Shown here: piece by piece, positions 8,322 to 63,865 of the stretch
How positions within the stretch are numbered: position 1 is the stretch's first letter
Layout: each line of letters starts with the position of its first letter
Assembly (NCBI RefSeq): GCF_050177655.1
Contig: NZ_JBFXGV010000006.1
Span: forward strand, 4,467 to 68,466
Direction: 5' to 3'
Source of the DNA: Paenirhodobacter sp.
GTDB taxonomy: Bacteria > Pseudomonadota > Alphaproteobacteria > Rhodobacterales > Rhodobacteraceae
DNA: 64,000 nt
Position numbers and translations under genes: made by a program
The notes under the pieces: generated by a model
What the model was told of the DNA's origin: nothing
The model's input: only the letters and a program-made list of their open reading frames with translations
Databases searched by the model: none

Positions 8322-10097
8322 ATGACGAGCTATACCGCCAATACCCGCGACATGCAGTTCCTGCTGCACGAGGTTCTGAAGGTTTCCGAGGCCGGGCTGC
8401 CCGGCTACGACGACCTTGAACGCGACTTCACCGAACAGGTGCTCGACGCCGCCGGCAAGGTGGCCTCCGAGGTGCTCGAACCGCTGAACGCGGTGGGCGA
8501 CAAGGAAGGCTGCGTGCTCGAAAACGGCATCGTGCGCACGCCGAAGGGCTTCAAGGAGGCCTTCGAAGCGATGAAGGAGGGCGGCTGGACCGCGCTCGAC
8601 TGCGACCCGGAGTATGGCGGTCAGGGCATGCCCTATCTGCTCAACTGCGCGGTGGGCGAGATCTTCGTCTCGGCCAACATGGCCTTCAACATGTATCAGG
8701 GCCTGACCCATGGCGCCTATTCGGCGATCCACGCCCATGGCACCGCCGAGCAGAAGGCGACCTATCTGCCGAAGATGGTCAGCTGCGACTGGACCGGCAC
8801 GATGAATCTGACCGAGCCGCATTGCGGCACGGATCTGGGCCTCTTGCGCACCAAGGCGGAACCGCAGGACGACGGCTCCTACAAGATCACCGGCCAGAAG
8901 ATCTTCATCTCGGCGGGCGATCACGACATGGCCGAGAACATCATCCACCTCGTCCTTGCCAAGGCGCCCGGCGGCGGCGAGGGCACGAAGGGGATCTCGC
9001 TCTTCATCGTGCCGAAGTTCCTGGTGAACGCGGATGGCTCGCTCGGCGCGCGCAACCCGGTCTCCGTCGGCATGCTCGAAGAGAAGATGGGCATCCACGG
9101 CAATTCGACCTGCGTGATGAACTATGACGGTGCGACCGGCTGGCTCCTTGGCGATCTGCACAAGGGCATGCGCGCGATGTTCACGATGATGAACGAGGCG
9201 CGTCTGGGCGTCGGCCTGCAGGGCTATGCCGTGGGCGAGGCCGCCTATCAGAACGCGCTCGCCTATGCGAAGGACCGCCTGCAGGGCCGCGCCGTGACCG
9301 GTGTCGCCAACCCCACGGGCGCCGCCGATCCGCTGATCGTGCACCCCGACATCCGCCGCTCGCTGATGGATCAGAAGAGCTTCCTCGAGGGCGCCCGCGC
9401 CTTCACCTTCTGGGGCGCCTCGCTGATCGACCGCGCGCATCTCGCCGATGACGCCGCGGCCGAGGGGCTGATCTCGCTGATGACCCCGGTCATCAAGGGC
9501 TTCCTCACCGACAAGGGCTTCGAGACCGCGGTGCTCGCGCAGCAGGTCTATGGTGGCCACGGCTACATCGAGGAACAGGGCATGTCGCAATTCACCCGCG
9601 ACGCCCGGATCACGATGATCTACGAGGGCGCGAACGGCGTGCAGGCGCTCGATCTGGTGGGCCGCAAGCTCGCGCAGGACGGCGGCAAGCATGTGATGGC
9701 CTTCTTCGAGATGGTGAAGGCCGAGTGCAAGGCGCATGACGCCGACGACCGGATGAAGCCCTTCACCGACGCGCTCAAGACCGCCTCGAAGCAGCTGCAG
9801 GCGGCGGGGATGTTCTTCATGCAGAACGGCATGAAGAACCCGAACGCGGCGCTCTCGGGCAGCTACGACTTCATGCATCTGATGGGGCATGTCTGCCTTG
9901 GCCTGATGTGGACGCGGATGGCCGCGGCGGCCCATGCCGCGCTCGACGCCGGCGCCTCGGACAAGGCCTTCTACGAGGGCAAGATCGCGACCGGGCGCTA
10001 CTACATGGCGCGCCAGCTGCCCGCCTGTGCGATGCACCTCGCCCGCATCGAGAGCGGGGCCGAGCCGGTGATGGCGCTCGACGTCGAGCAGTTCTGA
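8322..10097 (+). CDS. large acyl-CoA dehydrogenase (about 590 aa class with C-terminal extension)
   Basis: The N-terminus is [19 protein letters not shown]. It has [14 protein letters not shown] and [16 protein letters not shown] motifs. The ATG at 8322 follows GGGAGAGG. Confidence 0.9.
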
Positions 10098-10122
10098 GAA
10101 CGAGCAGACTGGAAATGAGAGC

Positions 10123-10148
10123 GGCGCCCTAAGGGGCGCCGTTTGGTT
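10123..10148 (+). terminator. rho-independent terminator of the acyl-CoA dehydrogenase gene
   Basis: The hairpin GGCGCCC-TAAG-GGGCGCC is followed by GTTTGGTT. Confidence 0.6.
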
Positions 10149-10323
10149 CGGGGATGGCGTTTCGCGGCCCCACAGTGAAATACGGGAGACAGACAAGAGG
10201 CGTCTCACTAATAGATATAGCGCTGAAAACACTTCGGTGCTTACGGCTTTAGACAAGCACGTCGACGCTGCGCGAATTGCCGAGGGTCATGGTGGAACTG
10301 GTGCAGCCATCAGTTAACGCCTA

Positions 10324-11109
10324 TCAACCCTCTCGCCCCAAGAGGGCCCGGACGACGCCCGACCAGTGCTTATACCGTAGAGCTTCGCGTTGCATTTCAT
10401 TGATCAGCGCGCTGCGATCTTGTCTGAACTCGGCGAGCTTCTTCTTTCTAAGGGTCTCCAATTCATAGAGATTGAGATAGTCCCTCAGAAGGCCATCTAT
10501 CCCTTCGGCCGGGTCGCCGCCCGCCTTCGTTACAATGACCGAAAGTAACGGGATACGCTCTTCAGTCTGCTTGCCCAGATCGAGAAGTGCCCTGCAGATC
10601 AACCCGAGGGGCCGCCCATATGCGGTGCGCGGCCAGACGCGGTGGGTCAGCCCACGTTCCTCCAGCATCGTGGCCGTCTCACCATAAGATATCACGCCGC
10701 CGCCGTGTGCAACTCGCTCGACCAAGAGACGTAGCAAATGCGGGGCAACTTCAGCGCTCCAGCCACCGATGGCGTCACAATTCCTTCTGAAGATATGCTC
10801 GAAGGTCTTTCCATTAAGAAACGCCTCGTCATCCACAGAATGTCGCAACTTGCCATGGCGGTCGCCTGAGACTTCGATGAGCCCACGGACGGCGAGTGCG
10901 AAGTCACGACTGACGACTTCCTCGTCCCGCGCCGCATTGAGGGTGCGCGAATATTTCCTGGGAGACCAACCCAAGGCTTCAGCCATTTCGGAAGGGGTGA
11001 GTGAGAGGCTTTGGCGAGCCTCCTCAATGTCATCTGCCGTGACATCGTCGAACTGACTCACCTTTGTCAGGGCGGATAGTTTAAAGCCTTGATGCGAACC
11101 AGCGGGCAT
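10324..11109 (-). CDS. hypothetical protein with N-terminal HTH, in a low-GC pocket
   Basis: The 261-aa protein has a strong RBS (AAGGAGA 7 nt upstream). The HTH-like segment is LSLTPSEMAEALGWSPRKYSRTL. The C-terminal part (GGVISYGETATMLE...GRPLGLICRAL...IPLLSVIV) weakly resembles an MGMT/ATL-type winged helix without the active Cys. A sampled line (10441-10500) is 42% GC. Confidence 0.6.
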   Translation of the reverse strand: MPAGSHQGFKLSALTKVSQFDDVTADDIEEARQSLSLTPSEMAEALGWSPRKYSRTLNAARDEEVVSRDFALAVRGLIEVSGDRHGKLRHSVDDEAFLNGKTFEHIFRRNCDAIGGWSAEVAPHLLRLLVERVAHGGGVISYGETATMLEERGLTHRVWPRTAYGRPLGLICRALLDLGKQTEERIPLLSVIVTKAGGDPAEGIDGLLRDYLNLYELETLRKKKLAEFRQDRSALINEMQREALRYKHWSGVVRALLGREG

Positions 11110-11172
11110 AAGAATCTCCTTAGTTGATGTCGATATCTTAGCACGACTGATGGCCCGTCAAATTTGGCGTGT

Positions 11173-11206
11173 CAATATTGGCTATCCAATTATGGATTCA
11201 ATATTG
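11173..11206. promoter_or_regulatory. two copies of the palindrome CAATATTG (candidate operators)
   Basis: CAATATTG occurs at 11173-11180 and 11199-11206, 26 bp start to start. Both lie in the AT-rich region upstream of the minus-strand HTH gene. Confidence 0.3.
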
Positions 11207-11291
11207 GGATCTGGAGAATCGTATTTCATTACATGCGTGGAGGGCACAGGCCCTTCCACCCGCCGAACCAACGAGCCCTTGCTCTAGCCCA

Positions 11292-11332
11292 CCCTCAAAA
11301 ATACGCCTTCGGCTCATCCGGCTTGCCACCGG
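11292..11332. repeat. 41-bp direct repeat, copy 1 (orphan copy of a gene 3' end)
   Basis: CCCTCAAAAATACGCCTTCGGCTCATCCGGCTTGCCACCGG matches 11850-11890 at about 37 of 41 positions. On the minus strand it encodes ...GKPDEPKAYF-stop. Confidence 0.8.
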
Positions 11333-11393
11333 ATGGCGCCAGGATGAAACTCGAGATCATCGACGACTGAGCACCACATCCCGAGGCACTCCG

Positions 11394-11834
11394 ATGACCC
11401 GACTTTCCCCCCGGCTCGCGCTTGGCCTGAGGCACTGGATCATCCTGTCCCTTGTCGTCACCCTCGGCGCCTTGCTCAACAACGAGCTGCAGGCCCGGAT
11501 CTGGAACGACACGTCCTCGCTCCTTGGCGCAGGAAGCCCCGAGGACATCTTCCTCTTCGTCGCCTTCTGCTTCCTCGCCGCCCTGATCTACGCCGCATCC
11601 GTTCCGGTGATGAGCCTCTTCACCGCGAAACGCCTGCGCCTCGGCATCGTGCTGGCCTATGGGCTGCCCTGGCTCGCCTATTGGCTTTTCATCACCGTCC
11701 CGATCGCCCTGCGCACCGGAAGCTTTGTCAACGGCGAGGGAAACGCCCGGATTCACCTGGCGCTGCTGATCGGCGATCTGGTCCTTGCAGTCCTGCTGGC
11801 ATCGCGCCCGCCGAAAGCGCCCGCGGCGCCCTGA
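11394..11834 (+). CDS. hypothetical integral membrane protein
   Basis: The 146-aa protein has about 4 hydrophobic helices (WIILSLVVTLGALL, IFLFVAFCFLAALIYAASV, and others). Start is the ATG at 11394. Confidence 0.5.
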   Translation: MTRLSPRLALGLRHWIILSLVVTLGALLNNELQARIWNDTSSLLGAGSPEDIFLFVAFCFLAALIYAASVPVMSLFTAKRLRLGIVLAYGLPWLAYWLFITVPIALRTGSFVNGEGNARIHLALLIGDLVLAVLLASRPPKAPAAP

Positions 11835-11849
11835 GACGAAGCGACACCC

Positions 11850-11890
11850 CCCTCAGAAATGCGCCTTCGGCTCATCCGGCTTGCCCGCGG
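11850..11890. repeat. 41-bp direct repeat, copy 2 (true 3' end of gene 11853..12221)
   Basis: CCCTCAGAAATGCGCCTTCGGCTCATCCGGCTTGCCCGCGG encodes ...GKPDEPKAHF-stop on the minus strand. Confidence 0.8.
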
Positions 11891-12221
11891 CAAGCGCCAG
11901 CAAACCGCCCACCAGACAGAACCCGATCGGGAACATCGTGAAGACGCCAAAGCCGAAGGCGTAATACATCAGCCCGCCGCCCGCGAGCATCAGCACCCCG
12001 CCCCAGAGCGCGCGGATCTTCGCCATCGCCCCGCCGGCAATCGCCAGAAGCGGCGAAAGGAAGCTCGCGAAGCGGATCAGGCCGGGGTCTTCGACCCGCC
12101 CGAACATGTCGCCCACCTCGGCATGGGCGCGCACCACCTCGGTGTAGCCATAGCCGAAAAACCCCACGATCAGGGCGATCAGCCCGCCGATGATGCCCAG
12201 CACCAGCGCTGCATTGCGCAT
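11853..12221 (-). CDS. small integral membrane protein
   Basis: The 122-aa protein MRNAALVLGIIGGLIALIVGFFGYG... has 4 predicted helices. I chose the ATG at 12221 because the upstream part of the track ORF is Arg/Gly/Pro-rich. Confidence 0.6.
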   Translation of the reverse strand: MRNAALVLGIIGGLIALIVGFFGYGYTEVVRAHAEVGDMFGRVEDPGLIRFASFLSPLLAIAGGAMAKIRALWGGVLMLAGGGLMYYAFGFGVFTMFPIGFCLVGGLLALAAGKPDEPKAHF

Positions 12222-59396: not shown

Positions 59397-59936
59397 ATGA
59401 CCCCCCGCAAGACCGTCAAGGACTACATCCGCACCATCGTCGATTTCCCGCACGAAGGGATCCTGTTTCGCGACGTGACCACGCTTTTCGCCGATGCGCG
59501 GGGTTTCCGCATGGCGATCGACGAGATGCTGCACCCCTGGGCGGGGGAGGAGATCGACAAGGTCGTCGGCCTCGAGGCGCGCGGCTTCATCCTTGGCGGG
59601 GCGATCGCGCATCAGCTCTCGAAAGGGTTCGTGCCGATCCGCAAGAAGGGCAAGCTGCCCGGGCAGACGATCTCGCAGGCCTATAGTCTCGAATATGGCG
59701 AGGCGGTGATGGAAATGCACGAGGATGCGATCGCGCCGGGCGAGAAGGTGCTGATCGTCGACGACCTGCTGGCGACGGGCGGCACCTGCAGCGCGGGGAT
59801 CAAGCTGATCGAGCGGCTGGGCGGCGAGATCGTCGGCTGTTCCTTCATCGTCGATCTGCCGGAGCTTGGCGGGCGCAAGCTGCTCGAGGATCTCGGGATG
59901 GAGGTCTCGGTGCTCTGCGAATTCGAGGGCGCCTGA
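59397..59936 (+). CDS. apt: adenine phosphoribosyltransferase
   Basis: It contains [13 protein letters not shown] and the PRPP loop [13 protein letters not shown]. Confidence 0.95.
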
Positions 59937-60050: not shown

Positions 60051-60076
60051 GCGCCCTGCCGCCCCCGGCAGGGCGC
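60051..60076. terminator. strong 11-bp-stem hairpin at the GC-shift boundary
   Basis: GCGCCCTGCCG-CCCC-CGGCAGGGCGC is followed by ATTCATTT. Confidence 0.5.
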
Positions 60077-60322
60077 ATTCATTTGGGCCGGGGGGCGGGG
60101 GGGCGTGTTTGGCGATGGGCAGACAGGGGGCGTGAGTGACGCAGGGCCGAAGGGGCATATGATCGCTTCCGGCCCTTTGCTGCCGTTCAGCCCTGCCGCA
60201 TGCTGTGCGACGGCATTCCCGCAAGCAGCCGTTCAGAGGGCGAGCAGCGAAGCGCTCGTCGCGACTGAAGTTGTGCGAAGCGAAGTATGGGGGTTTCTTG
60301 CCCGTCATCGGAGAACAGGATT

Positions 60323-60401
60323 GAAGCGGGTATGATGCCCGTTTACACTCCGCAAAGTGGGTCTCATACCCGCTTCGTCGCAGCAAGAGGGTATCATACC
60401 C
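60323..60401. promoter_or_regulatory. inverted repeats upstream of the HTH/MTase/PIN cassette (candidate operators)
   Basis: A perfect 13-bp inverted repeat pairs GAAGCGGGTATGA (60323-60335) with TCATACCCGCTTC (60364-60376). The related palindrome GGGTAT-C-ATACCC spans 60389-60401, 20 nt before the ATG at 60421. Confidence 0.45.
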
Positions 60402-60420: not shown

Positions 60421-60876
60421 ATGATCCCTGCGGGGCGGGTGCAGACATTGACAGGCCTGACCGCCAATCAGCTAAGGGAGTGGGCTCATCGGCGCGATCT
60501 CGTTCCGCCCGATATCGAGGCCGGCGGTCCGGGTCGGCCCGCGCTCTATAGCTGGCAAACAGTCTTACTGCTGCGCATTGCTATGGTTCTGCGCGAGCGG
60601 TTCAGAATTGAGTTGCAGGCGCACAAGGATCTGCTGCACGCGCTGCACGACCTTCTTTCGGGTGTGCCCTTTCCAGCTTTGCGCGGCTGCGTGTTGGCAT
60701 TGCGTGCCATGGAACATGGCGAGCTACTTTCTGAAGGCATAGTCCATGTCGGGGTGAATGAGCCCGATACCTTGTTTCTGCATCTTGACCCACATCTTGA
60801 CGTGCTCGAAGTGGAATTCGCACCCCAAGATCAGAGCGGGCAGCTTCCACTGTTTCGCGCGGTGCGGATCCGATGA
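60421..60876 (+). CDS. MerR/excisionase-like HTH protein, first gene of the cassette
   Basis: The 151-aa protein has an AGGAG RBS. RVQTLTGLTANQLREWAHRRDLVPP...GRPALYSWQTVLLLRIAMVLRE follows the MerR-type HTH and wing pattern. I do not recognise the C-terminal half. Confidence 0.65.
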   Translation: MIPAGRVQTLTGLTANQLREWAHRRDLVPPDIEAGGPGRPALYSWQTVLLLRIAMVLRERFRIELQAHKDLLHALHDLLSGVPFPALRGCVLALRAMEHGELLSEGIVHVGVNEPDTLFLHLDPHLDVLEVEFAPQDQSGQLPLFRAVRIR

Positions 60877-63368
60877 GCGTGCTTGTCTCGATCGAGCGGG
60901 AGCTCTTGGGTTTGGGCTATAGTGCCGACGCGCTGCACCGCGCCTATAGCTTCGCGGATGTCCTCGATTCCGCTACGCAGACGCGCACCGTTGCGCTGGC
61001 CGCTTTCACCCAGACGCCGGAATCCTTCCGGTCCGCCGCCTTCGGGGTCGTTGAAGGCGAGCCTGACAGTGCTGCCGCAGTAATGGCCAATCGCGCCTTG
61101 GGCGCCCCGATCTTCTTTTCGATCGACAGTAGCGATGTCGGCGTTTGGGCAGTTGGCGCCCAGGCGCCACGCCTGCTTGAGCGAATTCCTGTCGATCAGC
61201 TTTCCGACCTGTTTGGCCGTTACCGCGATAGCTGGACTCCGCGGGCACTCCACCGCGCCAAGTCGCTCGATCTGCCGCGTGGTCCGATCCAAGTTGATTT
61301 CATCGATCTGGGGCTGTTGCCGGCGATCGAGCAGGAGGTCCAGCACAAGCTCCATCGGACCATGGCGGAAGTGCTCGATCTGCTTCTGCCGTCTGACGCG
61401 GGGCAAGAAAGGCAGAAGGATGCTTTCCGCCTGACTTTCCGCTTGCTCGCTGCCAAAATCTTGATTGATCGAGAGCATCCAGCCGCTGCGGACTGGGCGC
61501 ACGATGATGCCAGTGCCGTCCTTAGCGGAATTCAAGGCTATTATAGCCTTGGCCTCCTCGGCAGCGACGTTGCCGCGGTATCTGCCGACGATATAGAATC
61601 TGCGTGGGCGCGCCTTCGGTCGTCGATCACGCTACGGAATATCTCGTCTGACAGCTTGGCATTCGTTTACGAAAATACGCTCGTCACAGCCGATACCCGC
61701 AAGCTCTTCGGGACACATAGCACGCCCCGCCCCTTGGCTGAGTATGTGCTGAGCCAGATCGATCTTTCGCGCTGCGATCCAGAAACAGTGCGGATTGCTG
61801 AACCTTTCGCCGGCGCGGGGATTTTCTTGGTCGCTGCGCTTCGCGAACTCCGCGACTTGCTGCCGCCGGATTGGCCGGCCGAACGACGTCATCAATTCTT
61901 GGTTGATCGTCTGGTGGGTGCAGAACTCGACGCATTCGCTTGCGAGGTGGCGACGCTCTCGCTGATCCTGGCCGATTATCCCAATGCGAATGGCTGGCAC
62001 ATCCGCTCAACCGATCTTTTCAAGGTCGGCGCCCTCGGCACTTTCCTCGAAGGTGCAACGCTCATCCTATGCAATCCGCCGTTCGAGGATTTTACGGTGG
62101 AGGAGCGGCAGGACTATCCGGAGGCCTTCGCCGTTTCGCCGTCAAAGGCGATGGTCGCGCTTCATGCCTCTATAGATGCAGGCCCCGAGGCGCTGGGCTT
62201 CGTGTTACCACGTGGCGTCCTGCAACAGACTCAATATCGTAATCTCCGAGCACGACTTGCGGCCACCTATGACAGGATCGAGCTTGTCTCGCTTCCCGAT
62301 CGCATCTTCGAGAAGGCGACCTATCCATGCGCTCTCGTGATCGCGACCGATCGGCGTCCCGTGGAAACGTTGACTAAGCCCGTTCGGTTAATTGCCAAGA
62401 CTGTTGTCGATGCGGACAGAGAACGGTTTCTCGCTCATGGCTCCGTCACTTCCCAGCGTCACTCGGTTCGGGCTGCGCCCGCTGGTAACATCTGGATTGG
62501 TGAACTCGACGCGCTTTGGTCCTATCTCGAAGACGCACCCCGGCTAGGTAACTGTGCGGACATTGGCCGAGGACTTCAATGGAGGTCGCAGCGTGCTGGC
62601 GTGTTTAATGCGCCTGGCCCGATGCGCGAACGAGGAATCTACAAGCCTGCCGATAGCCTTATCCCGTTTCATTTGATGAACACGGTGTGGCTCAGCATCG
62701 ATCCCGAGCTTAGCTATCGCCAAGGGCCGCTACAAAGACTCTGGGACAACCCCAAGGTTCTGATCAACAACCAGCGCTCGTCTCGGGGCCCATGGCGGCT
62801 CTCGGCGGCGGCCGATGACAGTGGGCTTTGGGCGTCGCAGCAATTTACTGGGATCTGGCCTACTGGCGACTATGACATCCGAGCGCTGGCCGCGATCTTA
62901 AACGGGCCGCTCGCCAATGCTTTCGTCACTGAACATTCGACCGATCATGATTTCACCAACGTCATGCTCGGCAGTATGCCGCTTCCACGCAAATTGGATA
63001 TGATTAAGCTTGGTGCGGCCGTGCGGGAATATGAAGCTCTTCTTGATGAGAAGCACCATGCCGTGCTCGTAGGCAATGAGTATGATTCGCGTCTTGATCG
63101 CCTGCTCGTCTGGATCGATGCACTCGTGCTTGACGGTTATGATCTGCCGCCACGTCTTGAACGCCAGCTATTTTCCTATTTCGAAGGTCGTAAGCGACCG
63201 GTGCAGCATGGCTTCTCTGGCTGGCTGCCGGCGGACCTGAAGGGATATGTGCCACTTTACGAATGGCTGACCCGAGATCATGCATCCAACCAAGGCGCTT
63301 GGGTGCTCGATGTATTCAAGCCCGCACCAGCTGAGGAAAATGATGCACTCGCAAGGTTCCTTGACTGA
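60873..63368 (+). CDS. N6-adenine DNA methyltransferase-like protein (gamma-class motif order, Eco57I/TaqI-C-like C-terminal region), no recognisable nuclease domain
   Basis: The 831-aa protein's start makes an ATGA overlap with the upstream gene. Its motifs are FGTHSTPRPLAEYV (motif X, aa 279-292), AEPFAGAGIF (motif I, aa 309-318, nt 61797-61826) and NPPF (motif IV, aa 401-404, nt 62073-62084). The N-terminal roughly 270 aa match nothing I recognise. Confidence 0.75.
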   Translation: MSVLVSIERELLGLGYSADALHRAYSFADVLDSATQTRTVALAAFTQTPESFRSAAFGVVEGEPDSAAAVMANRALGAPIFFSIDSSDVGVWAVGAQAPRLLERIPVDQLSDLFGRYRDSWTPRALHRAKSLDLPRGPIQVDFIDLGLLPAIEQEVQHKLHRTMAEVLDLLLPSDAGQERQKDAFRLTFRLLAAKILIDREHPAAADWAHDDASAVLSGIQGYYSLGLLGSDVAAVSADDIESAWARLRSSITLRNISSDSLAFVYENTLVTADTRKLFGTHSTPRPLAEYVLSQIDLSRCDPETVRIAEPFAGAGIFLVAALRELRDLLPPDWPAERRHQFLVDRLVGAELDAFACEVATLSLILADYPNANGWHIRSTDLFKVGALGTFLEGATLILCNPPFEDFTVEERQDYPEAFAVSPSKAMVALHASIDAGPEALGFVLPRGVLQQTQYRNLRARLAATYDRIELVSLPDRIFEKATYPCALVIATDRRPVETLTKPVRLIAKTVVDADRERFLAHGSVTSQRHSVRAAPAGNIWIGELDALWSYLEDAPRLGNCADIGRGLQWRSQRAGVFNAPGPMRERGIYKPADSLIPFHLMNTVWLSIDPELSYRQGPLQRLWDNPKVLINNQRSSRGPWRLSAAADDSGLWASQQFTGIWPTGDYDIRALAAILNGPLANAFVTEHSTDHDFTNVMLGSMPLPRKLDMIKLGAAVREYEALLDEKHHAVLVGNEYDSRLDRLLVWIDALVLDGYDLPPRLERQLFSYFEGRKRPVQHGFSGWLPADLKGYVPLYEWLTRDHASNQGAWVLDVFKPAPAEENDALARFLD

Positions 63369-63865
63369 TGGAGCAGATTCTTCTCGACACAAATTTCGTG
63401 TCCGTCCTGTTCGATCCGCGCCGCCCCAATTTCGCGGCGGTTCATGGGCGGGCGCAGGCCTTTGCCCAAAGCGACCTCGTCTATCTCTCGGCCGTCGTGT
63501 TAGCCGAACTTCGCTACGGGATGGAAGCAGCCCAGCGTGCCGGACAGGACGTCTCCCATATCCGTCACACGCTCACTCAGGCAGCAGCGTATCCACTTGC
63601 AGAAGTCGGTCGCCATACAGCCGAAGCATATGGCCACGTCAAGGCGCTCCTAGCTGAGCATTACCTCGACCTGTCTCGTCGCACTCCCCGATGGCTGGAG
63701 AACTGGCAAGATCGGGCCTCAGGTCAGATTCTCCAAGTCGATGAGAACGACCTCTGGATCGTAGCCCAAGCTGTAGAGCGTGATTATCTTCTGGTGACGA
63801 GCGATCAGCGACTTGCGGATCGCTTCGTCCCAGCGATTGCCGAACTCCGTTTGTCGGTCGTTTGA
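63368..63865 (+). CDS. PIN domain (VapC-like) nuclease
   Basis: The 165-aa protein's start makes a TGATG overlap with the MTase-like gene. The acidic residues sit in the PIN pattern: LLD7TN, LAE47L, END128LWIVAQA and VTSD146. Confidence 0.75.
   Translation: MEQILLDTNFVSVLFDPRRPNFAAVHGRAQAFAQSDLVYLSAVVLAELRYGMEAAQRAGQDVSHIRHTLTQAAAYPLAEVGRHTAEAYGHVKALLAEHYLDLSRRTPRWLENWQDRASGQILQVDENDLWIVAQAVERDYLLVTSDQRLADRFVPAIAELRLSVV

Follow-up and report, generated by a model that had tools for sequence, protein, structure and literature searches.

A MerR-like regulator, a type IIL-like methylase and an exchangeable PIN or RES effector in one mobile cassette: a possible three-part toxin-antitoxin or defense module

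What could the gene for a large DNA methyltransferase-like protein be doing between the gene for a small DNA-binding protein and that for a PIN-domain nuclease? The question is raised by the far end of a 64,000-nt stretch of Paenirhodobacter sp. DNA (contig NZ_JBFXGV010000006.1, positions 4,467 to 68,466, forward strand; the window hereafter), in which three genes, here called g1, g2 and g3, encode a helix-turn-helix (HTH) protein, an N6-adenine methyltransferase-like protein and a PIN protein. An original prediction had singled out these genes as a coupled cassette in a region of lower GC content, and had suggested a methylation-linked toxin system with the PIN protein as effector. Its three open reading frames (ORFs) agree exactly with the ORF listing, the overlaps it described are found in the sequence (ATGA, 60873-60876, g1/g2; TGATG, 63366-63370, g2/g3), and the GC content is indeed lower, at 0.56-0.61 in the last four 1-kb bins versus ~0.65-0.75 across most of the window. 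The ORF listing and the raw sequence together place three co-directional, coupled genes inside a low-GC islet of ~4 kb. The idea of a methylation-linked toxin system fits the conserved adjacency and the co-swapped tail and effector described below, and it can be sharpened: the effector is exchangeable (PIN or RES), and a change of effector is accompanied by a change in the methylase's C-terminal tail. We put at about one in two the probability that the methylase tail acts as antitoxin, the PIN or RES protein as effector and the HTH protein as regulator.

A protein search gave more than 1,900 relatives of g2, nearly all of ~830 aa. We fetched 80 genome loci (g2 identity 42-88%), which with seven earlier ones make 87, 85 of them informative; they come from Alpha-, Beta- and Gammaproteobacteria, Syntrophales, Acidobacteria and Blastocatellia. 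The methylase-PIN adjacency, for which the original prediction had proposed a neighborhood check, is conserved: in 81 of the 85 loci a g3 homologue starts 0-40 nt after a methylase of 42-98% identity. The four exceptions are two loci with a different toxin, one contig end, and L026, in which the PIN gene is truncated to ~25 codons; in L009 the PIN gene is present though cut short by an insertion. Extra metagenome loci gave the same picture, with a PIN frame just downstream in 12 of 13 (two frameshifted, one displaced behind stop codons). The order HTH-methylase-PIN is fixed in all proteobacterial and acidobacterial loci examined. When flanking ORFs were clustered, only three gene families were conserved, the next commonest being genes of type IV secretion systems (T4SS; 10 loci). 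The possibility that a neighboring restriction endonuclease explains the methylase had also been raised, and none is conserved beside the cassette in the inspected loci. As a unit the cassette is genuine, self-contained and mobile; annotated records label it just 'N-6 DNA methylase' and 'PIN domain protein'.

The most informative loci are three, from two divergent lineages, that carry a RES-domain gene: L046 (Thiocystis violacea), L042 (a Chromatiaceae metagenome-assembled genome, MAG) and L114 (a plasmid of Rhizobium sp. Q54). L046 and L042 keep the g1 homologue (44-47% identity over its full length), and their methylase aligns collinearly with g2 (50% identity) as far as residue 786, at an FSGW(L/D)P motif (BLASTP, L046). 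The tail after this residue has ~140 residues versus 45 in g2, and downstream, overlapping the methylase gene, a RES-domain gene stands in place of the PIN gene (Pfam RES, E = 1.5e-19). L114 is very divergent: it has an HTH gene of a second family (family B, see below), a 945-aa methylase and an annotated RES gene overlapping the methylase end. Its tail is 26% identical to that of L046 (E = 8e-5), and its RES protein 28% identical to the RES protein of L046. Across the three loci the collinearity extends to about residue 780-786, and a tail of 140-170 aa then replaces the 45-aa tail. As the RES loci swap tail and toxin yet keep g1, a change of toxin goes with a change of the methylase C-terminus and not of g1.

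Searches of curated families with the long RES-type tail gave excisionase/HTH_17-like matches and faint Rv2175c_C matches. Free-standing homologues of this tail (118 and 236 aa) are encoded directly upstream of RES genes whose products are 43-71% identical to the L046 RES protein; judged by this arrangement, they occupy the classic antitoxin position. When the long tail was compared with solved structures, armadillo-repeat matches came up, which we judged to be spurious.

The exchange of tails extends beyond PIN and RES loci. A profile of the N-terminal domain of g2 collected 593 cluster representatives at 50% identity, 458 of them with E <= 1e-10, and wherever a representative is full length the domain stands at the N-terminus of a protein of 820-1050 aa. 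The C-termini in this family fall into several unrelated tail types, which diverge after about residue 770-800. A further tail type is found in a Chloroflexi-type clade (~35% identity to g2), where an overlapping PIN gene follows whose product is 31.5% identical to g3. The methylase-PIN pair is kept in this clade with no MerR-like gene upstream. The conserved core is the methylase-toxin pair, which the HTH regulator accompanies as an accessory in the proteobacterial and acidobacterial clades.

What kind of effector is g3? The predicted PIN domain was recovered with Pfam (PIN, E = 3.6e-10). Matches of g3 to VapC and FitB toxin structures are weak, the NCBIfam VapC model matches below the model cutoff, and PADLOC v2 gave no match. 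The acidic residues D7, E47, D128 and D146 are kept in at least 97% of 66 unique g3 homologues, in which the family-specific motifs PRWxExWxD and DENDLW are likewise conserved, and the PIN active site is intact. In several loci the PIN gene has decayed while the methylase stays intact, through an IS66 insertion (L009), a truncation (L026) or a frameshift (L102 and L103). In L009 (9833-10700), from Paracoccus panacisoli, the IS66-family element breaks the PIN gene after about codon 73-82, and its TnpA- and TnpB-like frames are visible.

The second gene product is in line with the gamma-class methyltransferase that had been read from its motifs: Pfam MmeI_Mtase matches the window protein, and N6_Mtase, TaqI_C and Eco57I match in its homologues. 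Its matches in PADLOC v2 were confined to generic methyltransferase models and to the methylase component of MADS (methylation-associated defense system). We built an AlphaFold2 model of g2 from 31 homologues (predicted local distance difference test, pLDDT, 80.7). With this model, Foldseek found the orphan methylase CamA as the best match, followed by DrdV, MmeI, BpuSI, BrxX/PglX of the bacteriophage exclusion (BREX) system, and M.BseCI. The full domain order of a single-chain restriction-modification (RM) enzyme is present in g2 (Table 1). Motif I, EPFAGAG (residues 310-316; 61800-61820), and motif IV, NPP(F/W), here NPPF (residues 401-404; 62073-62084), are invariant in 64 unique homologues. 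TaqI_C matches 14 of 31 g2 homologues, and the CamA, M.BseCI and MmeI structures match across the recognition region. Within this region, residues 501-600 share only 65-66% identity with L001 and L009, versus 87-98% in the other segments (these relatives are 88-90% identical overall). A mosaic of this kind is characteristic of the specificity regions of active sequence-specific methylases, and the methylase looks functional; a recognition segment that is mosaic between near-identical relatives is what one would expect of a changing DNA specificity.

The original prediction had found no PD-(D/E)xK motif in g2. At the level of motifs this stands; the fold is another matter, since the first 120 residues are predicted to form a nuclease-like alpha/beta domain. 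A separate AlphaFold2 model of residues 1-252 (pLDDT 81) matched the N-terminus of DrdV in Foldseek (E = 6e-4, probability 0.99) and, more weakly, the nuclease fragment of a type I HsdR protein (3h1t, probability 0.91). The residues conserved in this domain among the 64 unique homologues are G15, Y16, F45, T46, P49, S51, R53, A55, A56, L76, A78, P79 and W92, and D29 is mostly conserved. By inspection, not by residue-level superposition, they include no conserved acidic-x-lysine (E-x-K), and for this reason the domain is probably inactive or repurposed. A sequence-profile search of the N-terminus against solved structures gave only chance matches to mitochondrial ribosomal protein S10, so that the fold comparison alone was informative. 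At the other end of the protein, residues 801-831 are modeled at mostly lower confidence (55-82), which would fit a segment that becomes ordered upon binding.

The first gene product was confirmed as a MerR-like HTH protein (Pfam MerR_1, E = 3.5e-6); PADLOC v2 gave no match for it. In the proteobacterial and acidobacterial loci examined, the slot upstream of the methylase is always filled by an HTH protein of ~150-180 aa. These belong to two divergent families, A and B, which align with each other over their full length (hhalign E = 1.6e-5). Since g1 is retained full-length in RES variants as well as PIN variants, and is unchanged when the effector changes, we suggest that it is a regulator rather than an antitoxin; the latter role was rejected for lack of co-variation with the toxin. 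A MerR-like regulator of this kind is comparable to the third component of omega-epsilon-zeta-type systems.

Its putative operators lie just upstream. Inverted repeats had been described before g1 as paired; the repeats are real, and their number is three, as a 13-bp palindrome, GGGTATSATRCCC, occurs in three copies between 60328 and 60401. Of the ~40 distinct family-A upstream regions inspected, nearly all have two to four copies of a palindrome before the g1 homologue, the sequence of which varies from locus to locus, and because of this recurrence the palindromes are not due to chance. A degenerate fourth palindrome, GGGGGTTTCTTGCCC, lies at 60289-60303, ~37 nt upstream of operator 1, and is kept in L009 and not in the plasmid copies. 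Operator 1 sits within the 17-nt spacer of a putative promoter, the TTGAA hexamer of which abuts the first palindrome and is conserved among the closer related loci. The site is read from the sequence and its promoter function is presumed; in a consensus promoter scan TTGAAG/TACACT fell below threshold.

Table 1. Coordinates of the cassette, of the segments of g2 and of the associated sequence features (positions in the window).
Feature	Position	Strand	Description
GC-rich hairpin	60051-60076	+	Terminator-like; 3' of the apt-like gene; left edge of the low-GC islet, GC falls from there
Candidate promoter	60321-60349	+	TTGAAG (60321-60326), 17-nt spacer, TACACT (60344-60349); read from sequence
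Operator 1	60328-60340	.	GGGTATGATGCCC
Operator 2	60359-60371	.	GGGTCTCATACCC
Operator 3	60389-60401	.	GGGTATCATACCC
g1	60421-60876	+	151 aa; MerR-like winged-HTH protein with ~75-aa C-terminal domain; predicted operon autoregulator
g2	60873-63368	+	831 aa; gamma-class N6-adenine methyltransferase-like protein
g2 residues 1-120	60873-61232	+	Nuclease-like (PD-(D/E)xK-like) alpha/beta domain, signature FTQxPxS(F/Y)RSAA; AlphaFold2 and Foldseek
g2 residues 121-250	61233-61622	+	Helical connector; AlphaFold2 secondary structure, DrdV/MmeI/BpuSI full-length matches
g2 residues 251-500	61623-62372	+	Gamma-class N6-adenine methyltransferase domain; Pfam, PADLOC generic models
g2 residues 501-700	62373-62972	+	TaqI_C/CamA-like target-recognition domain; 501-600 mosaic
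g2 residues 701-786	62973-63230	+	C-terminal helical region, ends FSGWLP; last segment common to PIN-type and RES-type
g2 residues 787-831 and stop	63231-63368	+	Effector-specific tail; proposed PIN-neutralizing (VapB-like) segment
g3	63368-63865	+	165 aa; VapC/FitB-like PIN protein; predicted toxin effector

As g3 ends close to the end of the window, it had been feared that further genes of the system lie beyond it. This turned out not to be so, as related loci hold no fourth conserved gene. On the left, the cassette is preceded by an apt-like gene (ORF 59397-59936) and by a reading frame which, from its translation, we take to be 5'-methylthioadenosine-phosphorylase-like. Homology to other copies of the cassette starts at 60169 (L009) or 60321 (plasmid copies and copies on integrative and conjugative elements), and an identical 4.2-kb contig shows that unrelated, visibly GC-rich DNA returns ~200 nt beyond the window end. 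The whole cassette lies inside the window and, because homology begins at 60169 at the earliest and unrelated DNA resumes so soon after the window end, the islet consists of the triad and nothing else. Scans of the window for tRNA genes and for Rfam families found none, and the islet is therefore not tRNA-associated and without a known RNA element. Elsewhere in the window a second low-GC pocket (10001-12000, GC 0.59-0.60) contains a 261-aa ORF of unknown function (10324-11109, minus strand) followed by small membrane-protein-like ORFs; this may be another small inserted islet.

The settings of the related copies are varied. Those on conjugative elements lie between coupling-protein and T4SS genes. 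An Agrobacterium copy adjoins a TIR-domain gene and helicases, a Shedu gene adjoins the copy on an Agrobacterium plasmid, and one copy stands inside an island with Xre-peptidase, MazG-like, UDG and caspase-like genes. Others are lone islets beside insertion sequence (IS) or integrase genes among housekeeping genes. A plasmid database held relatives in three records only, whichever tail type served as query, and 2.9 million viral contigs held none, which argues neither way. Identical cassette contigs of 3725 bp (L064, L066-L070, L072 and L073) were binned in MAGs of at least five genera, namely Sedimentitalea, Henriciella, Erythrobacter, Nisaea and Parasphingorhabdus, which points either to a small element of high mobility or to contamination of the bins across samples. 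On plasmid 8 of Rhizobium sp. Q54, the gene directly before the RES cassette (L114:397-3402) carries the annotation restriction endonuclease BseRI (type IIG-like, ~1000 aa); among the loci with gene annotation inspected, such a neighbor was seen at this locus only. A Chloroflexi-type locus adjoins a type I RM operon and an integrase gene. In L116 (1-4423) and L117 (1-5459), where a type I RM operon lies by the Chloroflexi-type pair, a DUF2281-PIN pair is found between hsdR and hsdS; the island shows with it an RM-PIN association for a second time, independent of the first.

How could the three proteins work together? We suggest, as the simplest view, that the cassette may be a self-contained mobile operon working as a three-part toxin-antitoxin (TA) or abortive-infection module. 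In this model g3 would be a VapC-type PIN ribonuclease toxin, and g2 a type IIL-like DNA N6-adenine methyltransferase with an apparently dead nuclease domain of its own, whose last ~45 residues would serve as the antitoxin that keeps the PIN protein inactive. g1 would be a MerR-like repressor acting on the three palindromic operators to set the level of expression. The methylase body could then serve as the sensor: an event there would free or expose the toxin and lead to cell arrest. The trigger could be contact of the methylase with unmethylated foreign DNA, a phage anti-restriction protein that attacks it, or loss of the element that encodes it. The toxicity of the PIN protein, the nature of the trigger and a role against phages or plasmids are presumed here. 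A more specific version, which we offer tentatively and would not bet on, is that of an RM-style self/non-self sensor wired to a suicide effector. Host DNA would be marked by the methylase, and unmethylated invader DNA or an anti-restriction hit would cause the tail to release its toxin (PIN, RES or others), so that the cell shuts down rather than the invader DNA being cut. If so, the family with its many tail types could be an adaptor platform of a general kind, linking epigenetic sensing to toxins that can be exchanged for one another.

The same genes could also serve pure addiction by post-segregational killing. An orphan or anti-restriction methylase would help the mobile element, and its fusion to an antitoxin would make loss of the methylase gene lethal, with no sensing of invaders. 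The logic of tail and toxin applies equally here, and the copies on conjugative elements, on plasmids and in lone islets beside IS or integrase genes are what one would expect of TA modules, which are classic stabilizers of mobile elements (PMC2701414). However, addiction leaves unexplained why the ~250-aa nuclease-like domain and connector form the most family-specific, highly conserved part, and why the recognition segment is mosaic between close relatives; many copies, moreover, are chromosomal and beside other defense genes. Because the nuclease-like sensor domain is conserved, the specificity region is mosaic and defense genes lie nearby, we favor a defense role, namely abortive infection via the methylase, over addiction, which we consider possible but unlikely.

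Could g2 and g3 instead be the two halves of a split type IIL/IIG-like RM enzyme, in which the PIN protein cleaves DNA in trans for a methylase-recognition protein that no longer has a nuclease of its own? The domain order of g2 is that of DrdV, MmeI and BpuSI, yet without a conserved E-x-K, a nuclease gene does follow the methylase (PIN in 81 of the 85 loci), and the HTH protein and its operators resemble an RM controller protein. On the other hand, g3 groups with RNase toxins of the VapC/FitB type, and we know of no restriction enzyme that uses a PIN domain. Three loci, moreover, keep the methylase body and the HTH gene with a RES-domain partner, which is not a nuclease. Since RES substitutes for PIN, a role of the PIN protein as the DNA-restriction subunit is strongly disfavored; we rejected it as a restriction nuclease on this ground, and consider the split enzyme very unlikely. 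The RES loci bear also on an ordinary MerR-PIN TA pair into which an unrelated methylase has been inserted, with g1 as antitoxin and g2 as cargo. MerR-like antitoxins with PIN toxins have been predicted by comparative genomics (PMC2701414), and the extra ~75-aa C-terminal domain of g1 could bind a partner. However, the order of the three genes is fixed in the proteobacterial and acidobacterial loci examined, g1 is unchanged with a RES toxin and missing where the methylase-PIN pair persists, and the toxin-linked change falls in the methylase tail, not in g1; an insertion into such a pair is thus highly improbable.

Several points weigh against our own reading, in which the tail of the methylase is the antitoxin. 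The physical binding of the tail to the PIN protein is something that we infer. The 45-aa tail of g2 matches no curated family and no known VapB family, and the long RES-type tail matches none of the curated antitoxin families, its similarity to RES antitoxin domains consisting of gene position and the faint Rv2175c_C match only. RES variants are rare, at three loci and a few cluster representatives, as is also seen from a metagenome scan seeded with a RES-variant methylase, which gave PIN variants only. In a mirror-tree comparison of PIN with the segments of g2, the tail had the highest correlation (r = 0.88, versus 0.76-0.85 for the other segments), also when the methylase domain was controlled for (partial r 0.65 versus 0.27-0.54), a signal that is suggestive only. 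In L075 the methylase is possibly frameshifted and the PIN gene intact, in a MAG in which an assembly or sequencing error is possible. Finally, several copies lie among housekeeping genes, and the defense-island context is anecdotal.

If the reading is correct, epigenetic DNA marking would be wired directly to toxin-antitoxin killing inside one protein. It would also bear on RNase toxins that stand without antitoxins beside methylase or RM genes: in the cassette the methylase itself may carry the missing antitoxin as its tail, and the puzzle is now testable. The family is large, with hundreds of clusters at 50% identity in several phyla, and it moves on conjugative elements. That the tail-toxin pairs can be exchanged suggests a modular platform of experimental use, and the cassette is a candidate addition to defense-system catalogs.

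The original prediction could not place the arrangement in any named system, and we could not do so either: PADLOC v2 and full-text literature searches gave no named match for HTH-methylase-PIN, newer catalogs not being covered. Membership of BREX was rejected, as the PglX model reached only E = 0.035 and the inspected flanks hold no PglZ, BrxC, BrxL or other core genes; so was membership of MADS, as the mad2 model matches the methylase core only (E = 5.8e-13) and no other mad partners are conserved. With type IIL/IIG enzymes (MmeI, DrdV, BpuSI) and PglX/BrxX, g2 shares a nuclease-like fold, a connector, a gamma-class methylase and a TaqI_C-like recognition domain in a single chain. It differs from the type IIL/IIG enzymes in having no conserved D...E-x-K, from PglX in being shorter and having no BREX partner genes nearby, and from both in its effector-specific C-terminal tail, which is followed by a toxin gene.

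Among TA systems, the cassette shares with VapBC the four acidic PIN residues, a toxin start that overlaps the upstream stop, and palindromic operators. Unlike VapBC, it has no small VapB (70-90 aa), the 831-aa g2 being directly upstream with overlapping stop and start, and its DNA-binding regulator is a separate first gene. VapKSC, which consists of a kinase, a STAS antitoxin and VapC, and protects against phage (EMBO J 2026, PMC13373217), is likewise a three-gene operon in which a non-VapB, sensor-linked protein holds VapC via a short C-terminal region, as we propose for the cassette. There, however, a kinase activated by single-stranded DNA acts on the STAS protein, whereas the candidate sensor of the cassette is a methyltransferase with a built-in tail. 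In Thiohalocapsa, vapC and hicA genes without antitoxins flank RM or methylase genes, and a fail-safe role like that of PrrC has been proposed for them (PMC9296519); one of our cassette loci, L083, comes from a Thiohalocapsa genome. These genes and PrrC-EcoprrI share with the cassette an RNase toxin that lacks its usual antitoxin and is linked to DNA-methylation machinery. PrrC differs in being a HEPN anticodon nuclease with an NTPase domain in a type Ic hsdMSR operon; the cassette has no conserved HsdS or HsdR, and its toxin is PIN or RES.

The RES variants recall the Xre-RES systems (ParST, MbcTA), in that free-standing homologues of their tail hold the antitoxin position upstream of RES; the difference is that in the cassette a methylase body of ~780 aa carries the antitoxin-like module as a C-terminal fusion. 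Two-gene PIN-MerR and RES-Xre systems have been predicted (Makarova et al., 2009, PMC2701414), and the former resemble the cassette in having a MerR-like HTH gene and a PIN gene in one operon, but here a 2.5-kb gene separates g1 from the PIN gene in all loci and g1 does not co-vary with the toxin. The cassette is best filed as a widespread one that combines features of a type IIL-like methylase with those of type II toxin-antitoxin systems.

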